Positions 15,067-41,003 of a stretch of DNA of 64,000 bases are shown here, piece by piece. The DNA is taken from positions 271,465-335,464 of the forward strand of contig CAYWUX010000001.1 of assembly GCA_964461525.1 (NCBI GenBank), given 5' to 3'. This stretch comes from an uncultured Hyphomicrobiaceae bacterium. Lineage in GTDB: Bacteria > Pseudomonadota > Alphaproteobacteria > Rhizobiales > CAYWUX01. The notes under the pieces are model-generated. The model did no database searches and was not told where the DNA came from. It was given only the letters and a program-made list of their open reading frames with translations. Each line of letters starts with the position of its first letter. The stretch's first letter is position 1. The translations under genes and the position numbers were made by a program.

Positions 15067-17763
15067 CTAGATCTTGCTGGCTATCGCGGATTGTGCAGCG
15101 GCCAACCTGGCCACAGGAACCCGATATGGCGAGCACGAAACATAGTCAAGGCCGACCTGGTGACAGAATTCAATGGATTTCGGGTCTCCCCCATGCTCAC
15201 CACAAATTCCCAGTTTCAAGTTTCCGTTTGTGCTTCGACCTCGTTTCACACCAATTTTCACCAGTTCCCCCACGCCCTCAACGTCAATTGAAATAAATGG
15301 GTCCGTATCGATCAATCCTTTTTCAACATATTCTGTGAGGAAACTTCCGGCGTCATCTCTGGAAATTCCAAGACCGGTTTGCGTTAAATCATTGGTGCCG
15401 AAAGAAAAGAAGTCCGCTGACTGCGCAATTTCATCCGCCTTAAGACAGGCTCTCGGAAGTTCGATCATCGTACCGATGGTATATTCAATTTTTGTACCGG
15501 TTTCGCTCTCCACCTGTTTCGCCACTTCGCGCACACGTCCGGCCAGAAAATCAAACTCAGGCCGGCCGATTATCAGAGGAATCATAATTTCGGGCTCCAC
15601 CGGCTCGCCTGTTTTTTTAGACATACTGACGGCAGCTTCCAGTATCGCCCTTGCCTGCATTTCGGTAATTTCCGGATATGTAATAGCGAGACGACATCCG
15701 CGATGACCGAGCATTGGATTGAACTCTTGAAGTTCCTGAATGCGATTATGGAGAGCCTTAGGTGTAACGCCGATGGCAGACGAAACATCTTCAATCTCCG
15801 CATCCCCGTGGGGCAGGAATTCATGCAGTGGTGGATCCAAAAGGCGAATTGTCACCGGCATGCCGGCCATAATTTCAAACAAAGCTTCAAAATCACTGCG
15901 CTGCATCGGAAGAAGCTTGGCCAATGCTTTGCGGCGGCCTTCCTCAGTTTCAGACAAAATCATTTGTCGAACAGCGAGTATTCTTTCTTCGTCAAAAAAC
16001 ATATGCTCTGTGCGGCAGAGACCTATACCTTCACAACCAAATTTTTTCGCCGTCGAAGCATCAACCGCTGTGTCGGCGTTGGCTCGCACACCGAGTACCC
16101 GGACTTTGTCTGCCCAGGCCATCAACTTGGCAAAGTCTCCCGACAATTCAGGCTGCTTCATTTTAACGCTACCCAGAATGACTTGCCCTGCGGTGCCATC
16201 GATTGTGATCAGATCGCCTTTTTTCAGGGTGTGAGTACCAGCCTTCATTGTCTCATCTTTGTAGTCGATTCGAATTGTTCCGGCCCCGGAAACGCATGGC
16301 CTGCCCATACCACGCGCGACCACCGCCGCGTGACTTGTCATGCCACCCCGGGTAGTCAAAATTCCAACCGCAGCATGCATACCATGAATATCTTCAGGAC
16401 TCGTCTCCACACGAACCAGAATGACATCCTTACCATTTGCTTTCATCGCCTCGGCTTCATCGGAATTAAATACAATTTCACCCGATGCAGCTCCTGGTGA
16501 GGCCGGCAATCCCGTCGCAATCACATTACGGTCGGCATTAGGATCAAGCGTGGGATGGAGTAGCTGGTTGAGCGCGGCCGGTTCAATGCGCATAACAGCC
16601 TGCTCCTGGGAAATTACCCCCTCTTCGGCCAGATCAATTGCAATTTTGAGGGCGGCTTCAACTGTCCTCTTTCCGGCCCTGGTCTGCAGCATCCACAAAT
16701 TACCGTTCTGGACGGTAAATTCGATATCCTGCATATCCTTGTAGCGGGCTTCGAGTTTCTCGCAAATCGTTTTGAACTCCGAAAAGACCTCCGGCATTAA
16801 AGCTTCAAGTGAGGGGAGTTCGTCTCCGGCCTGAATGCGCGCTTGTTCGGTTAAGCTCTGAGGCGTTCTGATACCGGCAACGACATCTTCTCCTTGCGCA
16901 TTTACCAAAAATTCTCCATAGAGCTTTTTCTCACCGGTGGAAGGGTTTCTGGTAAACGCAACTCCGGTCGCACTATTGTTACCCAGATTACCGAACACCA
17001 TCGCCTGAACGTTAACCGCCGTTCCCCAATGTGCTGGGATATCATGCAGTTTCCGATAAGTGATTGCACGAGCGTTCTGCCATGAGCCGAACACAGCGCT
17101 GATAGCCCCCCACAACTGCTTGTTGATATCCTGTGGAAAAGGCTCACCGAGTTCCTGCTCCACGCACTTTTTGTAGGACTCAACAATTCCGACCCAATCA
17201 TCCGCATCAAGTTCGGTATCATTGAATAATCCGGTCTCATTTTTAAATGATTGCAAAATGTCCTCGAACAAATGATGATCGACGCTCAGGCAAACATCTG
17301 AATACATCTGAATAAAGCGCCGATAGGAATCGTATGCAAATCTGCGATCGGACGATCGTTCGGCCAGCCCGTCAACTGTCTGATCATTGAGGCCCAGATT
17401 CAATACCGTGTCCATCATGCCCGGCATGGAAGCCGGCGCGCCGGAGCGGACGGATACGAGAAGCGGATTGTTCCGGTCGCCGAATTGAGCCCCGACAGCC
17501 TTGCCGACCTCCGCGACCGCCAGTTCCACTTGGTCAATCAGTCCTTCAGGTAACTTTCGGCCCAGGTCATAGTAAGCCGAACAGACCTCTGTCGTGATTG
17601 TGAACCCCGGGGGAACCGGCAACCCCAGATTTGCCATTTCAGCCAAATTGGCACCCTTGCCGCCTAACAGTTCCTTTAATTCGGCAGAACCATCAGCCAA
17701 TCCAGATCCGAATTTGTACACCCACTTGTGTTTAACATTGTCCGTTGCCAAAGCCTGGCTCAT
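15067..17763 (-). CDS. ppdK: pyruvate, phosphate dikinase
   Basis: 898 aa. Phosphohistidine loop GGMTSHAAVVARG and PEP-utilising C-terminal block GLCRTEHMF. Confidence 0.97.
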   Translation of the reverse strand: MSQALATDNVKHKWVYKFGSGLADGSAELKELLGGKGANLAEMANLGLPVPPGFTITTEVCSAYYDLGRKLPEGLIDQVELAVAEVGKAVGAQFGDRNNPLLVSVRSGAPASMPGMMDTVLNLGLNDQTVDGLAERSSDRRFAYDSYRRFIQMYSDVCLSVDHHLFEDILQSFKNETGLFNDTELDADDWVGIVESYKKCVEQELGEPFPQDINKQLWGAISAVFGSWQNARAITYRKLHDIPAHWGTAVNVQAMVFGNLGNNSATGVAFTRNPSTGEKKLYGEFLVNAQGEDVVAGIRTPQSLTEQARIQAGDELPSLEALMPEVFSEFKTICEKLEARYKDMQDIEFTVQNGNLWMLQTRAGKRTVEAALKIAIDLAEEGVISQEQAVMRIEPAALNQLLHPTLDPNADRNVIATGLPASPGAASGEIVFNSDEAEAMKANGKDVILVRVETSPEDIHGMHAAVGILTTRGGMTSHAAVVARGMGRPCVSGAGTIRIDYKDETMKAGTHTLKKGDLITIDGTAGQVILGSVKMKQPELSGDFAKLMAWADKVRVLGVRANADTAVDASTAKKFGCEGIGLCRTEHMFFDEERILAVRQMILSETEEGRRKALAKLLPMQRSDFEALFEIMAGMPVTIRLLDPPLHEFLPHGDAEIEDVSSAIGVTPKALHNRIQELQEFNPMLGHRGCRLAITYPEITEMQARAILEAAVSMSKKTGEPVEPEIMIPLIIGRPEFDFLAGRVREVAKQVESETGTKIEYTIGTMIELPRACLKADEIAQSADFFSFGTNDLTQTGLGISRDDAGSFLTEYVEKGLIDTDPFISIDVEGVGELVKIGVKRGRSTNGNLKLGICGEHGGDPKSIEFCHQVGLDYVSCSPYRVPVARLAAAQSAIASKI

Positions 17764-31951: not shown

Positions 31952-32488
31952 ATGTCCAGAATAGATGAAAATTTACCATTTATAGCCGTCAGGATTGCTG
32001 TACTGACGGTTTCCGATACCCGTACCGCCAAAGAAGATAAATCAGGTCGCATTCTCGGTGAAATGTTAACCGAGGCAGGTCACGAACTGGCAGAACATGC
32101 GGTTGTGAAGGATGACGTTCCTGCTATCCAGGCCCAGGTAAAGGCCTGGATCGAACATCCCGATGTCGATGTTATTATCACGACAGGTGGCACGGGGTTT
32201 ACCGGCCGTGATGTTACGCCTGAAGCCGTTCGCCCTCTTTTTGAAAAAGAAATCGACGGGTTCTCGGTTTTATTCCACCAGCTGAGTTACGACAAGGTGG
32301 GCACATCGACAATACAATCCCGCGCCTGCGGCGGTGTCTGCCGGGGGACATACATATTTTGTGTTCCCGGTTCCCCGGGAGCCTGCAGAGATGCCTGGCA
32401 CGGTATTTTGAAATTTCAGCTCGACTATCGCCACAGACCATGCAATTTCGTTGAAATTATGCCGCGCCTGGAGGAGCACAGGAATTAG
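31952..32488 (+). CDS. moaB: molybdenum cofactor biosynthesis protein B
   Basis: 178 aa. MoaB/Mog block [20 protein letters not shown]. Confidence 0.88.
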
Positions 32489-33128
32489 CTTTGCCTGTCC
32501 TGACCAGCACGAACCGTCCCTCAACTCCGGAAAGTCTGCGAAAGTCCGCCAGTTCATCAACATCATTGAGCGTTTCGCAGAATCCGACGTCAAAATTTTT
32601 GAGATTTTCAAGTGTGTCGTCGAGTGTTGTCGAACTTGACCAGTCTACATTGTCAAATATTCTGAGCAGGCGTGGCGCGCGCCTGAGGCCGATTAACCAG
32701 TAGCCACCATCTCCAGCAGGACCTATTACAGCGTCTTTTTGCCTCAATATTCGGAATGCCCGATCTACATGTGACGGAGTAATCTCGGGAATATCTGTTC
32801 CAATAATTATGATCGGACCCTTAAAGTCCAGATTAAAGATCCTCTGCATTCTGTGGCCGAGATCTCCCCGGCCCTGCGCAACCAGTTCGCCCCCGAAAAT
32901 CTTATCCCCGACGAACCTCCAGTTTCTCCGGTTAAGCGCTGAATCCGGGGACACGGCCAGTTTCGTAGTCCAGCGCCTGTCGAAAGTCAGCCGCCGGATG
33001 ATGTTTGATGCTGTTACCCTGAAAAATCTGGTGGCGGCTACCTCACCAATATCTTTCGCCAAACGGGTCTTAACGGCTCCCGCAACCGGATATTTGACCA
33101 TGATAACCAGTGTGCAGATTGTTCTCAT
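32457..33128 (-). CDS. DUF2064 / TIGR04282-like nucleotidyl- or glycosyl-transferase
   Basis: ORF 32457..33173. I prefer the ATG at 33128 because [24 protein letters not shown] matches the usual N-terminus of the family. Also contains [11 protein letters not shown]. Confidence 0.75.
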
Positions 33129-33179
33129 GTGCGTATTTTTATTGAGCGGATCCGTTTTCTTCCAAGCCGGCAAACCTGA

Positions 33180-33872
33180 CTAGCCATAAATGCGATCAAT
33201 ATATCGGGGCGGCACTCGAAGATAATACAAGGCCAGGCAAGAAAGATTACGCATCATGCGCATGACGTACCCTTCTTTTTTATATCGCTTGGCACTTGTG
33301 ATTGCCCGGCTTTGAAACATCACCAGTCTTTTGCGCCCCAAACGCCTGACGATATCGACATCCTCCATAAGTGGCAGCGTTTTAAATCCTCCGAGTTCCC
33401 TGTAAAGCGACTTGGGCAGCAATAACCCCTGGTCTCCATAAGGCAGCGCCAATACGAAACATCTCACATTGACAACAAACTCCAGAAATCGGGGCATATA
33501 GCCGAAATCATCGAGCGAGAATTTGAAGGCCGCGGCAGTTTCATTTAATTCACCATTTTCAACACGTTCTATGAAACGTGCCGCTTCCTTTTCCCAGCCA
33601 TTTTCCAGAATAGTGTCCGCGTGCAGAAACAGAAGCCACTCACCACGGGCAAAATCGGCTCCGACCGCAAGCTGCGAGCCCCGTCCCTTGGGCGACTGAA
33701 TATAGTGAGCCCCGCCCTGCTCCGCGAGATCCGCGGCGTCACAGGTTGTTGACCCCCCGTCCACCACTATAACCTCTTTTATCAGGCCAATGACGACAGC
33801 CGGTACCAATGCGGCCATCACACCGGCGAGGCGCTTATCAGGATTGAACGTCGGAATAACAATCGAAATCAT
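33180..33872 (-). CDS. family-2 glycosyltransferase, TIGR04283-like
   Basis: 230 aa. Contains MISIVIPTFN, VVDGGSTT, LFLHADT, YGDQG and PLMEDVDIVRR. Confidence 0.8.
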   Translation of the reverse strand: MISIVIPTFNPDKRLAGVMAALVPAVVIGLIKEVIVVDGGSTTCDAADLAEQGGAHYIQSPKGRGSQLAVGADFARGEWLLFLHADTILENGWEKEAARFIERVENGELNETAAAFKFSLDDFGYMPRFLEFVVNVRCFVLALPYGDQGLLLPKSLYRELGGFKTLPLMEDVDIVRRLGRKRLVMFQSRAITSAKRYKKEGYVMRMMRNLSCLALYYLRVPPRYIDRIYG

Positions 33873-33920
33873 GGGTCAGGTTTTTACCATGGAGCGATAA
33901 AATTCAACAAGAGGGTGAAT

Positions 33921-33951
33921 TTGACTTCCCTTAAATGTTCATGTTATGTTC
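33921..33951 (+). promoter_or_regulatory. candidate sigma70-type promoter overlapped by an alphaproteobacterial LexA (SOS) box
   Basis: TTGACT at 33921-33926, an 18-nt spacer, then TATGTT at 33945-33950. GTTC-atgttat-GTTC at 33937-33951 is an exact GTTC-N7-GTTC direct repeat. It lies 123 nt upstream of the radical SAM start and 65 nt from the divergent GT2 start. Confidence 0.6.
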
Positions 33952-34073
33952 TAATCAGCTTTTAACCGTAGATATCTGATGAGATATCAGATGTTCGACC
34001 GTATCAAGGATCTGAAGAAAGTTATTCTATTTACAGCAGCAACCCAAAATGGAACAGGTTTTTCAACAAAACA

Positions 34074-35150
34074 ATGGCAGATCTCCTTCCCCCGAACTTT
34101 CGTCGTGGACGCGGCAGCCAATCCAACAATTCCGGTCGTTACGAAACGTTGACCCGCGACTGGTTTGATGATGGCTGGTCAACCCTTGAGGAAATAGATA
34201 CCCTGCGGAACTCCGTCAGGCTAGAGCAGGCAAAAAACATTATATCGACCAACAAGTCGCCCGATATCAGTTTCGATCAGTCAATCAATCCTTATCGGGG
34301 CTGTGAACATGGCTGCATTTACTGTTATGCCCGCCCGACGCACGCTTATCTCGGACTATCGCCCGGTCTCGATTTTGAGTCCAAATTGGTGGCCAAGCCC
34401 AATGCGCCGGAAAGATTGCGATGCCAGTTGGCCGCACCGAATTATCATCCTAAAACTATAGCGCTCGGGACCAATACAGATCCCTACCAGCCGATTGAAC
34501 GACAATTTGGCATTACTCGTCAACTCCTTGAAATCATGGAGGAAACCAATCATCCCGTTGTCATCGTAACAAAATCGTCTCTGGTCCTGCGGGACCTGGA
34601 TATTCTGGAGAGGCTGGCTTCCCGCGGTTTGGTCAAAGTGGCAATATCCATTACCTCGCTAAACCACAAACTATCGAGAAAAATGGAACCAAGGGCCAGC
34701 ACACCTAAAAAGCGCGTTGTGGCGCTTAGAAAGTTGGAACAAAGGGGTATACCAACGGCTGTTATGGTCGCACCTATTATTCCCGCTTTAAATGAGTTCG
34801 AAATAGAAAATATTCTAACCAGGGTAGCAAATCAGGGCACGCGGGAGGCCGGTTATGTCATTCTGCGATTGCCCCTGGAAGTAAAAGACCTTTTCCACGA
34901 ATGGCTGACAGCGGAGTTTCCCAACAGGGCGAAGCGTGTTTTATCCCTGGTTTACAACATGAGAGACGGGAAGGCCTATAAATCTGAATGGGGGGAGAGA
35001 ATGCGTGGCCGCGGACCATACGCAGATCAGATTGCGCGAAGATTTGAGATGGCCATGAAGCGGTTGAACATGAACAACCGCCAACTTCCGCTTCGCACGG
35101 ATTTGTTCCGGCCACAGGAGCGTTCGGGACAACAGTTACCCCTGCTCTAG
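34074..35150 (+). CDS. PA0069-family radical SAM protein (COG1533, SplB-like)
   Basis: 358 aa. Contains RGRGSQSNNSGRYE, NPYRGCEHGCIYCYARPTHAYLGLSPGLDFE (CxxxCxxC cluster) and TNTDPYQPIE. Confidence 0.88.
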   Translation: MADLLPPNFRRGRGSQSNNSGRYETLTRDWFDDGWSTLEEIDTLRNSVRLEQAKNIISTNKSPDISFDQSINPYRGCEHGCIYCYARPTHAYLGLSPGLDFESKLVAKPNAPERLRCQLAAPNYHPKTIALGTNTDPYQPIERQFGITRQLLEIMEETNHPVVIVTKSSLVLRDLDILERLASRGLVKVAISITSLNHKLSRKMEPRASTPKKRVVALRKLEQRGIPTAVMVAPIIPALNEFEIENILTRVANQGTREAGYVILRLPLEVKDLFHEWLTAEFPNRAKRVLSLVYNMRDGKAYKSEWGERMRGRGPYADQIARRFEMAMKRLNMNNRQLPLRTDLFRPQERSGQQLPLL

Positions 35151-35229
35151 CTGGATCTGCCTAGGATTCCTCCATCAGCTTTGGATTTTTAAAATATTGC
35201 AGGGGTTATGGAGTTGACAGGCATTCATT

Positions 35230-35907
35230 ATGCCATTCAGTCTTACACCATCTTCCAAACTGATTCGGTTCAATACAAATCCAATGAACCAACTGCGACC
35301 CTCATTTGATGAAGAAACAAAATTAGCCGGGAGTTTCGGTTCTCGTATTGCTGGCATTGACGAGGCCGGACGCGGACCGTGGGCTGGTCCGGTGGTGGCT
35401 GCCGCCGTAATTCTGGATCCCGATAATATTCCGGATGGGTTGAACGATTCAAAACAAATAAAAGCCGGCGACCGGGACCGTCTTTTCGATCAGATTTTGA
35501 ATGGTTCTGACGTTGGTATTGGAATAGGGCACGTCGGACAGATTGACAGAGATAACATCCTGCAGACGACGCTTTGGACGATGGGCCAAGCGGTTGCAGA
35601 TCTCACCGCTGCCCCGGACGCCGCATTAGTGGATGGTAACAAATGCCCCGAATTGAACTGCCCGGTACAGGCCCTCGTCAAGGGAGACGGCCTGTCGCTA
35701 TCAGTCGCTGCGGCCTCAATTATTGCGAAGGTCACCCGCGACCGGATCATGGTGGATCTGGCCCGGAACCATCCGGGCTATGGATGGGAACGCAATAAGG
35801 GGTACGGTACGGCCGAACATCATCGGGCGATATACCGCCTTGGTGTTACAGCTCATCACCGCCGCTCGTTCAAGCCTGTCCGCGCAGTGCTCAACAGACA
35901 AACATAA
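35230..35907 (+). CDS. rnhB: ribonuclease HII
   Basis: 225 aa. Contains GIDEAGRGPWAGPVVAAAV and DSKQ. An alternative ATG lies at 35284. Confidence 0.92.
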   Translation: MPFSLTPSSKLIRFNTNPMNQLRPSFDEETKLAGSFGSRIAGIDEAGRGPWAGPVVAAAVILDPDNIPDGLNDSKQIKAGDRDRLFDQILNGSDVGIGIGHVGQIDRDNILQTTLWTMGQAVADLTAAPDAALVDGNKCPELNCPVQALVKGDGLSLSVAAASIIAKVTRDRIMVDLARNHPGYGWERNKGYGTAEHHRAIYRLGVTAHHRRSFKPVRAVLNRQT

Positions 35908-39181: not shown

Positions 39182-39421
39182 AGGGATCATCAGATTGATA
39201 TCAGTACAGGTTCTGGAAAATTTGGCGTCGGCAAGAAGATTATGCCCGCACGTCAATTTGGACATATTCGTGCACAATTCTGCAGCTATGCAGAGACTTC
39301 TTGCAACAAATTTCCGGGTTCACAATCTTATGTACGAAAATTGTCTGTATCAGCTGGTTGATAAAAGATAGAAAATGTTATTCAAACAATCTGAGTTTAA
39401 AGATCAGAATTGGAGATTGTT

Positions 39422-40138
39422 GTGCCGCAGGATAATCTACTAGATAAGCTACCGGTGTCGCGTCGAAACGCGCTGATTGGGGGCCTGTCCGTGGTCGCAG
39501 TAGCAGCTCTTGTCGGTGGTTATATATTCAGTGGGTCGCCGTCATCTCCTCCACAGGTGGTCAAAGCTGATCAGACTGATGCTAAATTCGCAGATTTGAT
39601 GCAGCCCGGCCAATTACCAGAAAATTCAACCGGAAATGAGAAAGCTCCGGTCACAATCATTGAATACTCGTCCATGAGTTGCCCGCACTGCGCAGCTTTC
39701 CACAAAAATACACTTCCGAACCTCAAGAAAAAATACATAGACACCGGAAAAGTTCGTTACATCATACGGGAATTTCCTTTGAATAACCCGGCTCTTGCCG
39801 CGGCAATGCTTGCACGCTGCACCGGTAAGGAAAAGTTTTTTCCTTTCGTCGAGGTTCTGTACGATAAACAGGAACAGTGGGCATTTGGACAACAGGGAGA
39901 AGTCGAAAATCAGTTGTTTGAAATCTCAAAACAGGCCGGATTCACCAAAGATGAGTTTCTTGAGTGTTTCAAGAATGATACTCTCTTTAAGGGTATAATG
40001 GCCGTAAGGGAACGGGGCTCCAAGCAGTTCGGTGTAAATTCCACCCCTACATTTTTTATCAACGGCAAAATGATGACGGGGTCTCAAAATTTTGACGACT
40101 TTGAGAAGATAATTGAGCCCATATTGTCAAACAGCTGA
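39422..40138 (+). CDS. DsbA-family thiol:disulfide oxidoreductase, membrane-anchored or Tat-like N-terminus
   Basis: ORF 39410..40138. I prefer the GTG at 39422, which lies 6 nt after GGAG. Active site SCPHC. N-terminus VSRRNALIGGLSVVAVAALVGG. Confidence 0.85.
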   Translation: MPQDNLLDKLPVSRRNALIGGLSVVAVAALVGGYIFSGSPSSPPQVVKADQTDAKFADLMQPGQLPENSTGNEKAPVTIIEYSSMSCPHCAAFHKNTLPNLKKKYIDTGKVRYIIREFPLNNPALAAAMLARCTGKEKFFPFVEVLYDKQEQWAFGQQGEVENQLFEISKQAGFTKDEFLECFKNDTLFKGIMAVRERGSKQFGVNSTPTFFINGKMMTGSQNFDDFEKIIEPILSNS

Positions 40139-40259
40139 ATGGGTCGCTTGAACCAAACAACAAGAGAGCTTTGGATATATCTGTGGTCATCGGCTTGCGG
40201 CAATTTTGATAATTAATGACAAAGATTTTTGGTTGGACATAAAGAGCTGGTTTTGTGCG

Positions 40260-41003
40260 ATGCCTGAATCAAACAGCAGACGTTTGGTCATTCATGGCCT
40301 ATTTGCCACAACCTTAGTTGGCCTTGCGGGTTGTGGTAACGGTTCCAATGGCGTCGCTGTCAGTCCGGTCAACTTTTCGGATGACGATCCCATCAGCGGT
40401 GACCCAGCCAATGCAAATAAGAGCAAACTCACCCTGCAGGCGGATGGAACGCCAAAACCTGAAGAACTGATGAAAGCTGGCCCCCTTGGGGAAAAGTCGA
40501 TGGGTTCGGACGCGGCCCCCGTTACACTAATAGAATATGCCTCACTGACCTGCCCTTATTGCAGGGCCTTTCATATGCAGACCTGGCCGACACTGAAGCG
40601 TAACTACATCGATACCGGAAAAGTCAGGTTCATATTGCGGGAATTTCCCATTGGTCACGCATCGGGCGCCGCCACAATTGCCATGCGCTGTCTTGGCCAG
40701 GACAACACTGCACGCTATTTCGAACTCTACCACAAATTTATTACCCAGCAGAAAAAATGGGTGTCCTTGGAAGTTCGACGGGACAAAATATTCAGTATTG
40801 CGGCTCAGACCGGAATTTCGCGACAGCAGTTCGATGCGTGCTATGCGAATCAGGAAATTTTGGAAGGGCTTAAATGGGTGAAACAGAGAGGCCGTGATCT
40901 CGGTGTTTCGGGCACACCTACGTTTTTCATTAACGGCAAGAAAGCCCGGTCCGTGTTATCGATGGAAGAAATTAAAAAAATGGCCGCCCCAATGTTATCG
41001 TGA
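40260..41003 (+). CDS. DsbA-family thiol:disulfide oxidoreductase, lipoprotein
   Basis: ORF 40206..41003. The ATG at 40260 gives MPESNSRRLVIHGLFATTLVGLAGCGNG (lipobox LAGC). Active site TCPYC. Confidence 0.85.
   Translation: MPESNSRRLVIHGLFATTLVGLAGCGNGSNGVAVSPVNFSDDDPISGDPANANKSKLTLQADGTPKPEELMKAGPLGEKSMGSDAAPVTLIEYASLTCPYCRAFHMQTWPTLKRNYIDTGKVRFILREFPIGHASGAATIAMRCLGQDNTARYFELYHKFITQQKKWVSLEVRRDKIFSIAAQTGISRQQFDACYANQEILEGLKWVKQRGRDLGVSGTPTFFINGKKARSVLSMEEIKKMAAPMLS

Follow-up and report, generated by a model that had tools for sequence, protein, structure and literature searches.

A LexA box between a PA0069-family radical SAM gene and a transferase pair in a Hyphomicrobiaceae genome: which gene does it serve?

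When two genes are transcribed away from each other and a LexA box lies between them, which of the two does the box control? The question is raised by a locus in a stretch of 64,000 nucleotides from an uncultured Hyphomicrobiaceae bacterium (contig CAYWUX010000001.1, positions 271,465 to 335,464), the whole of which is here termed the window. A SplB-like, COG1533-type radical SAM gene of the PA0069 family (rSAM, 34074..35150, plus strand) stands back to back with a transferase operon on the minus strand, which consists of a TIGR04283-family GT2 glycosyltransferase gene (33180..33872) followed by a TIGR04282-family DUF2064 gene (32457..33128) for a predicted CofC/MobA-like nucleotidyl- or glycosyl-transferase. 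The spacer between rSAM and GT2 (33873..34073, 201 bp) carries GTTCATGTTATGTTC at 33937..33951 (plus strand), an alphaproteobacterial LexA (SOS) box of the direct repeat form GTTC-N7-GTTC that is conserved in orthologous spacers; the GT2 ATG is 65 nt away from it, the rSAM ATG 123 nt. An earlier note on this DNA had described the divergent arrangement, the spacer and the place of the box, all of which are confirmed, and had speculated that LexA gates both directions in an undescribed damage-responsive module of radical SAM and transferases. Such a joint module is not supported. Comparison with about 90 related genomes suggests that the locus probably represents two independent transcription units placed back to back, a known SOS gene and a transferase operon that is its long-standing neighbour.

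The box and the radical SAM promoter

Is the box more than a chance repeat? The bare GTTC-N7-GTTC motif occurs twice in the window, where 1.99 copies are expected by chance; alone it thus proves nothing, and what makes it significant is that 62 of 67 orthologous spacers keep it. GTTCATGTTATGTTC is the only perfect intergenic copy in the window. The other exact match, GTTCCCCCGGGGTTC at 17602..17616 (minus strand), is most likely a chance match, as it is GC-rich, palindromic and sits inside a long coding open reading frame (15067..17763). A search of the intergenic regions of the window with one mismatch allowed gave no convincing further SOS box upstream of udg, mutY, ccrM or other genes.

Conservation was followed in 80 loci, found by scanning species-representative genomes with a GT2 alignment. 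They belong mainly to Hyphomicrobiaceae, Methyloligellaceae, Parvibaculaceae, Rhodobiaceae, Tepidamorphaceae and Lutibaculum, plus one Rhodospirillales metagenome-assembled genome (MAG). In the 62 rSAM/GT2 spacers the box (GAAC-N7-GAAC) is exact and always runs the same way with respect to the genes, with GTTC..GTTC on the strand of rSAM; the chance expectation is about 0.006 per 200-bp spacer.

The spacing of the box is telling. An alignment of 63 sequences anchored on the box shows conservation at positions that the anchoring does not force, namely T at -1, TTG at +4 to +6 and TTT at +8 to +10, with the consensus aT-GTTC-TTG-n-TTT-GTTC-t. On the rSAM side, 'TA' is found at +27/+28 in 76-79% of these sequences and marks the start of a CTATAT-type -10 element. 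In the relatives a CTTGnT -35 element lies inside the box, the CTATAT-type -10 follows 11-12 nt past it and the rSAM ATG about 7 nt further; an in-frame rSAM ATG is present 22-27 nt past the box in 42 of 62 loci, which is a leaderless arrangement. No fixed-spacing signal is seen on the GT2 side, where no column of the same 63 sequences reaches 0.5 bit. The distance from box to GT2 ATG varies between 46 and 131 nt, and four outliers stand at 237, 514, 517 and 1311 nt; in these four loci (L036, L041, L044 and L083) the box is still immediately upstream of the rSAM frame, with GT2 237-1311 nt off. What happens when GT2 is separated from rSAM? Ten loci with usable upstream sequence show such a separation (L008, L015, L026, L029, L037, L038, L051, L061, L064 and L067), and in none of them is a box present within 600 nt upstream of GT2.

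The box therefore appears to overlap the core promoter of the gene it regulates, which would be rSAM, and as part of the two-unit reading, held to be probable as a whole, it would be the operator of the rSAM promoter. LexA bound to GTTC-N7-GTTC over this core promoter would block RNA polymerase, and DNA damage would release the promoter through RecA-stimulated cleavage of LexA. In the window itself, a sigma-70-like promoter directed toward rSAM can be recognized by consensus match (TTGACT, an 18 nt spacer and TATGTT with an extended TG; 33921..33950, plus strand), and its -10 element is inside the LexA box.

The start of the window's rSAM gene is of interest. At the site of the leaderless rSAM start of the relatives, 27 nt past the box, there is an ATG, and it opens an upstream reading frame of 57 codons (33979..34152, plus strand) that is out of frame with rSAM and overlaps the first 79 nt of the gene. 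The rSAM start at 34074 has no obvious Shine-Dalgarno sequence and would be preceded by a leader of about 95 nt. The sequence of this region is identical across four independent assemblies, and the out-of-frame upstream reading frame is thus not an assembly error. Predicted folding of the leader RNA (33960-34085) is not significant (z = -1.33).

The rSAM unit may extend further. The rnhB gene for RNase HII (35230..35907, plus strand; NF000595) starts 79 nt 3' of rSAM, no terminator is predicted between the two (35150..35230), and the gap narrows to 10-28 nt in several relatives. These features suggest that rnhB may be co-transcribed with the SOS-controlled rSAM; the first unit would then be a LexA-repressed, PA0069/SplB-like gene, probably together with rnhB.

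SOS control of the first unit is proposed on the basis of these comparisons and of published work on the family. The family assignment, which the earlier note had made and which holds, is given by a score of 532 bits against the PA0069 model NF033668 (cut-off 360), with model positions 1-348 covered. There is a secondary match to the Rv2578c family (217 bits), the Pfam domain is PF04055 (Radical_SAM), and a CEHGCIYC cluster motif (Cx3Cx2C) is present at residue 77; a search for structures by sequence gave none for this protein. PA0069 is cited as one of 15 defined SOS genes of Pseudomonas aeruginosa (Cirz 2006, via bioRxiv 10.1101/2022.03.14.484287), LexA control of splB has been predicted in alpha- and beta-proteobacteria (Sanchez-Alberola et al. 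2012, PMC3323433), and a radical SAM gene is found in the core LexA regulons of Gram-positive bacteria and Balneolaeota (PMC7739468). PA0069/splB genes are thus already in LexA regulons, and damage induction of such a radical SAM gene is not new.

How, then, is the transferase operon transcribed? GT2 appears to have its own promoter, less well defined than that of rSAM, since a -10-like hexamer stands by its ATG in about half of the loci, including some without rSAM: TAnnnT is found just before the GT2 ATG in 40 of 77. In relatives, CTATAGT occurs about 7 nt before the ATG, and by analogy a weak candidate core promoter (TTGTTG, 18-nt spacer, TAAAAA; 33881..33910, minus strand) was picked out by eye in the window, where the consensus promoter scan had missed it. 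Its -10 ends 8 nt before the ATG, and a GT2 mRNA starting from it might, tentatively, be leaderless or have a very short leader. The LexA box begins 26 nt upstream of its -35. The second unit would thus be GT2-DUF2064 transcribed from a promoter of its own next to the GT2 ATG, with the box lying upstream of its -35.

The place of the cassette next to rSAM would be ancient and vertically inherited, as part of a gene block conserved in alphaproteobacteria, mutY-ccrM-rnhB-rSAM<>GT2-DUF2064-moaB-udg-etfQO. Gene order in the 80 loci was mapped by tblastn with ten window proteins, and junctions were counted where flanking DNA sufficed. The earlier note had asked whether the adjacency is conserved, and it is: rSAM is divergent from GT2 in 65/73 loci, the best-kept junction of the block. 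DUF2064 follows GT2 within 2.2 kb in 65/70, rnhB follows rSAM in 45/59, ccrM lies beyond rnhB in 27/43, and moaB stands directly after DUF2064 in 14/67.

Can the two units be separated? Outgroups were drawn from alphaproteobacterial chromosomes and chromids that are filed as plasmids in PLSDB, and a box is present upstream of rSAM in six of seven. In Sinorhizobium meliloti and Shinella, GTTCTTGC(T/A)(T/A)TGTTC is found upstream of the PA0069-family gene. A gene for a 183-aa 'glycosyltransferase' stands divergent to it, and DUF2064 is absent. This glycosyltransferase protein aligns only to the first ~120 residues of the window's GT2 at 29-30% identity, carries no HAD or YGDQG motifs and has no NCBIfam match. 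Methylobacterium bullatum has a boxed rSAM with a remnant GT2. Identity to the TIGR04283 GT2 over the N-terminal ~100-120 residues is 29-34% in the three cases (L086:4163-4714 in S. meliloti, L093 in Shinella, L092 in M. bullatum), and the protein has the appearance of a related GT2 that has decayed or been truncated. In Methylobacterium aquaticum, moaB adjoins the boxed rSAM directly and there is no cassette, and in Azospirillum and Paracoccus the box lies immediately upstream of rSAM in unrelated surroundings; in Pseudorhodobacter an exact box is missing. The reverse is found in L064, a Hyphomicrobiaceae-labelled MAG with a GC content of 38%, where rnhB directly flanks GT2-DUF2064 with no rSAM and no box in between. 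Outgroups that keep a boxed rSAM without an intact cassette, and a locus that keeps the cassette without rSAM, thus show that the two are separable in both directions.

Several points weigh against two wholly independent units. The GT2 promoter is poorly defined, with a recognizable -10 in only about half of the loci and one judged by eye in the window. In the common spacers of 165-180 bp no more than 58-66 nt separate the box from the GT2 ATG; an effect of the box on GT2 could arise by UP element/alpha-CTD contact or by supercoiling coupling of the divergent promoters. The rSAM<>GT2 junction is kept at least as well as GT2-DUF2064 and better than rSAM-rnhB and rnhB-ccrM, which could reflect selection for linkage. 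Lastly, the 80 loci are the nearest relatives of one GT2 and represent one inherited arrangement, not independent samples.

The transferase pair and its arsenosugar label

What do the transferases do? The earlier note had assigned DUF2064 and GT2 to the TIGR04282/TIGR04283 pair, and here it was right: in the NCBIfam scan DUF2064 scores 155.2 bits against TIGR04282 (curated cut-off 134) and GT2 196.8 bits against TIGR04283 (curated cut-off 182), and all the peptide motifs it quoted are found. Its statement that the two are annotated only as transferases 1 and 2, of unknown product, is outdated. NCBIfam now names both families 'arsenosugar biosynthesis glycosyltransferase', on the basis of association with the radical SAM enzyme ArsS. 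ArsS adenosylates dimethylarsenite to 5'-deoxy-5'-dimethylarsinoyladenosine, the first committed step to arsenosugars (PMC13598754; bioRxiv 10.1101/2022.09.23.509062). In the literature searched, TIGR04282, TIGR04283, DUF2064 and 'selenodomain' are mentioned only in passing.

Might the pair belong to a bona fide arsenosugar pathway whose ArsS and ArsM genes lie in other parts of the genome, with the adjoining rSAM playing no part in it? This is possible though doubtful. Both proteins are above the curated cut-offs, and the two models were built on whole-genome co-occurrence with ArsS, not on adjacency, which counts in favour of the proposal; the TIGR04282 model is of the type 'hypoth_equivalog'. 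The order GT2-DUF2064 is also shared with ArsS-linked plasmid clusters, in Acinetobacter portensis (pJNE5-X3), Burkholderia glumae, Burkholderia thailandensis and Hymenobacter volaticus, where the pair is surrounded by arsS, MTA phosphorylase (mtnP), DUF547, a TVP38/FAD oxidoreductase fusion and a methyltransferase. Among these, mtnP, DUF547 and the TVP38/FAD-oxidoreductase occur consistently in the Burkholderia and Acinetobacter plasmid clusters (L087, L095 and L096).

Against the proposal, the scores of the alphaproteobacterial clade (GT2 197-210 bits, DUF2064 155) are just above the cut-offs and 35-80 bits under those of ArsS-linked members (231-275 and 172-198 bits), and identity of the window pair to the ArsS-linked proteins is only about 30%. 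When queries from the plasmid clusters were used in tblastn, no homologue of ArsS, MTA phosphorylase, DUF547, the TVP38/FAD oxidoreductase or the methyltransferase came up, either in the window (64 kb) or, for the 80 loci, within 8 kb. The window's rSAM does not match the ArsS model TIGR04167 and is the only open reading frame in the window with a Cx3Cx2C motif, which bears out the earlier observation that the usual Cys-rich radical SAM partner is missing from it; among open reading frames of 220 aa or more at the 80 loci, a second Cx3Cx2C radical SAM was sought and only spurious high-GC frames turned up. The window's GT2 is thus a marginal TIGR04283 member that is paired with a TIGR04282 protein and lies outside any ArsS cluster in the DNA covered. 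The pair resides, moreover, in a conserved housekeeping block and not in an accessory island. The near-threshold scores and the lack of any of the pathway's usual neighbours nearby suggest that the arsenosugar label on the transferases of this clade may be an over-annotation. If the pair is ArsS-independent, it would define a small-molecule housekeeping pathway that is new and present in many alphaproteobacteria of soils and sediments.

The chemistry can be sketched at low confidence. DUF2064 has PF09837 (101 bits) and a weak PF01983 (CofC) match, and among Protein Data Bank entries it is similar to 3CGX, a putative nucleotide-diphospho-sugar transferase (E 8e-20). GT2 has PF00535 (Glycos_transf_2) and weak structural matches, to GT-A proteins only. 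DUF2064 would use a nucleotide to activate a phosphorylated sugar or acid; GT2, with its GT-A fold, would pass the activated group on to an acceptor. By analogy, the presence of MTA phosphorylase in ArsS-linked clusters suggests that phosphorolysis turns the arseno-nucleoside into a ribose-1-phosphate analogue ahead of the transferase steps, and the same scheme might, again at low confidence, apply there to 5-deoxy-5-dimethylarsinoyl-ribose: phosphorolysis to the ribose-1-phosphate analogue, nucleotide activation by DUF2064 and transfer by GT2.

Are the neighbours functionally linked?

Could one LexA box nevertheless repress both divergent promoters, and rSAM and the transferases constitute one damage-inducible module? 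A precedent of SOS-regulated divergent promoters in an alphaproteobacterium, uvrA-ssb of S. meliloti, is cited (Tapias and Barbe 1999, via PMC1839093). Two further points speak for it: in spacers of the commonest type the box is close to the GT2 ATG (65 nt in the window), and the divergent junction is the best kept of the block. So does a single MAG, L070 (5388-8684), in which DUF2064 is found downstream of rSAM-rnhB on the same strand and GT2 is still divergent; it is the only arrangement seen that would put a transferase gene into the LexA-controlled unit. A shared operator is unlikely all the same. The box overlies the rSAM -35 and is about 25 nt upstream of the proposed GT2 -35; its spacing is fixed to rSAM and variable to GT2; GT2 genes that are separated from rSAM do not carry it (0/10); and box and rSAM are kept together where the cassette has decayed or has been lost. 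The rSAM family is also SOS-regulated in taxa that have no such adjoining cassette. The gating of both directions that the earlier note had proposed is contradicted by these observations.

A looser functional link can also be envisaged. In Hyphomicrobiales, Parvibaculales and some Rhodospirillales, an ArsS-independent, core-chromosomal subfamily of the pair might have been held next to the SOS-regulated rSAM because the two are functionally joined, with coupling to damage arising indirectly through the shared, compact promoter region. The transferases would, for example, process an rSAM product derived from 5'-deoxyadenosine or 5-deoxyribose, or glycosylate a repair intermediate. Taken as a whole this proposal is decidedly unlikely.

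That the repeat is merely a conserved -35 region of rSAM, or the operator of another regulator, can hardly be correct: the bare motif does occur at chance frequency in the window and the conserved TTG inside it might be no more than a -35 element, but the two GTTC half-sites, at a distance of 11 bp, have been kept in Hyphomicrobiales, Parvibaculales, Rhodospirillales and Rhodobacterales, far beyond the needs of a -35. The motif is also the very one that experiments have defined as the alphaproteobacterial SOS box (GTTCN7GTTC in Caulobacter; PMC9578287), and in gamma-, beta- and Gram-positive bacteria the gene family is found in LexA regulons whose operator motifs are unrelated.

The preferred reading thus remains that of an SOS-controlled rSAM unit and a transferase operon as its independent neighbour. 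The surroundings are those of a core chromosome. Around the locus are housekeeping genes such as etfQO, a family-4 udg, a nitroreductase gene, moaB, rnhB, ccrM, mutY, smc and atpB. The window sequence has been assembled independently from several sediment metagenomes, and the nearest GT2 relatives are in Methyloligellaceae and Methyloceanibacter MAGs. Within the operon, the DUF2064 reading frame (32457..33173, minus strand) is open up to a TTG at 33173. The ATG at 33128, which gives 223 aa, is favoured by gene callers and by the TIGR04282 alignment; the gene callers give lengths of 214 and 223 aa. With this start, 51 nt separate the end of GT2 from DUF2064. At the other side, the 3' ends of moaB (plus strand) and DUF2064 (minus strand) are convergent and overlap by 32 nt (32457..32488).

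Other features of the window and of the related loci stand out. At 39410..41003 (plus strand), between a DUF721-like open reading frame and smc, are two tandem paralogous thioredoxin-fold proteins with a weak likeness to the Rcas_1661 (seleno)lipoprotein family (98-106 bits, cut-off 190). In about 16 relatives a gene for a ~320-aa exported MBL-fold hydrolase with a Tat-like signal is inserted between GT2 and DUF2064 (e.g. L077:8753-9724; the loci are L008, L015, L017, L025, L026, L029, L033, L034, L037, L038, L043, L057, L074, L077, L081 and L082). A gene of about 1.2 kb in this position was considered as a candidate ArsS and rejected, as it is of the MBL fold; its best match is to AidB-type N-acyl-homoserine lactonase (181 bits, cut-off 360). 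One contig, DASQHM010000089.1 (L078), is labelled Candidatus Cybelea (Vulcanimicrobiota), yet has the full alphaproteobacterial block from mutY to etfQO, and is probably mis-binned.

Comparison with known systems

How does the locus compare with systems already described? The ArsS-linked clusters have the same two transferase families, as a tight pair and in the same order, GT2 then DUF2064. They are found on accessory DNA together with their partners, whereas the window pair lies in a syntenic block of the core chromosome with no such partners nearby. With CofC/MobA-like nucleotidyltransferases, DUF2064 shares weak matches to PF01983 and TIGR03552 as well as the annotation of 3CGX, which suggests nucleotide activation. 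It differs from CofC itself in its score (26 bits against a cut-off of 105), in that its partner GT2 is not CofD and in the lack of an F420 context.

The S. meliloti uvrA-ssb pair is similar in that two alphaproteobacterial genes are divergent and a GTTC-N7-GTTC-type box lies in the shared spacer. There, both are DNA-damage genes and both respond, whereas the operator in the window is phased with one promoter only. Phasing with both promoters, and an operator kept by both genes when they are separated, are features of bidirectional control of this type that the present loci do not display.

The closest counterparts are the SOS-regulated genes of the splB/PA0069/Rv2578c type, with the same protein family and a class-typical LexA operator over the promoter. 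Assignment of the box to the splB-like rSAM would add about 60 species to an alphaproteobacterial regulon membership that has so far only been predicted, together with a clear promoter architecture, in which the -35 is within the operator and the start is leaderless. What the widely SOS-regulated PA0069 family does biochemically is a more interesting question than the transferase pair. Nothing essential distinguishes the present locus from these systems; peculiar to the window are the leader of about 95 nt and the 57-codon upstream reading frame, with the leaderless start out of frame.

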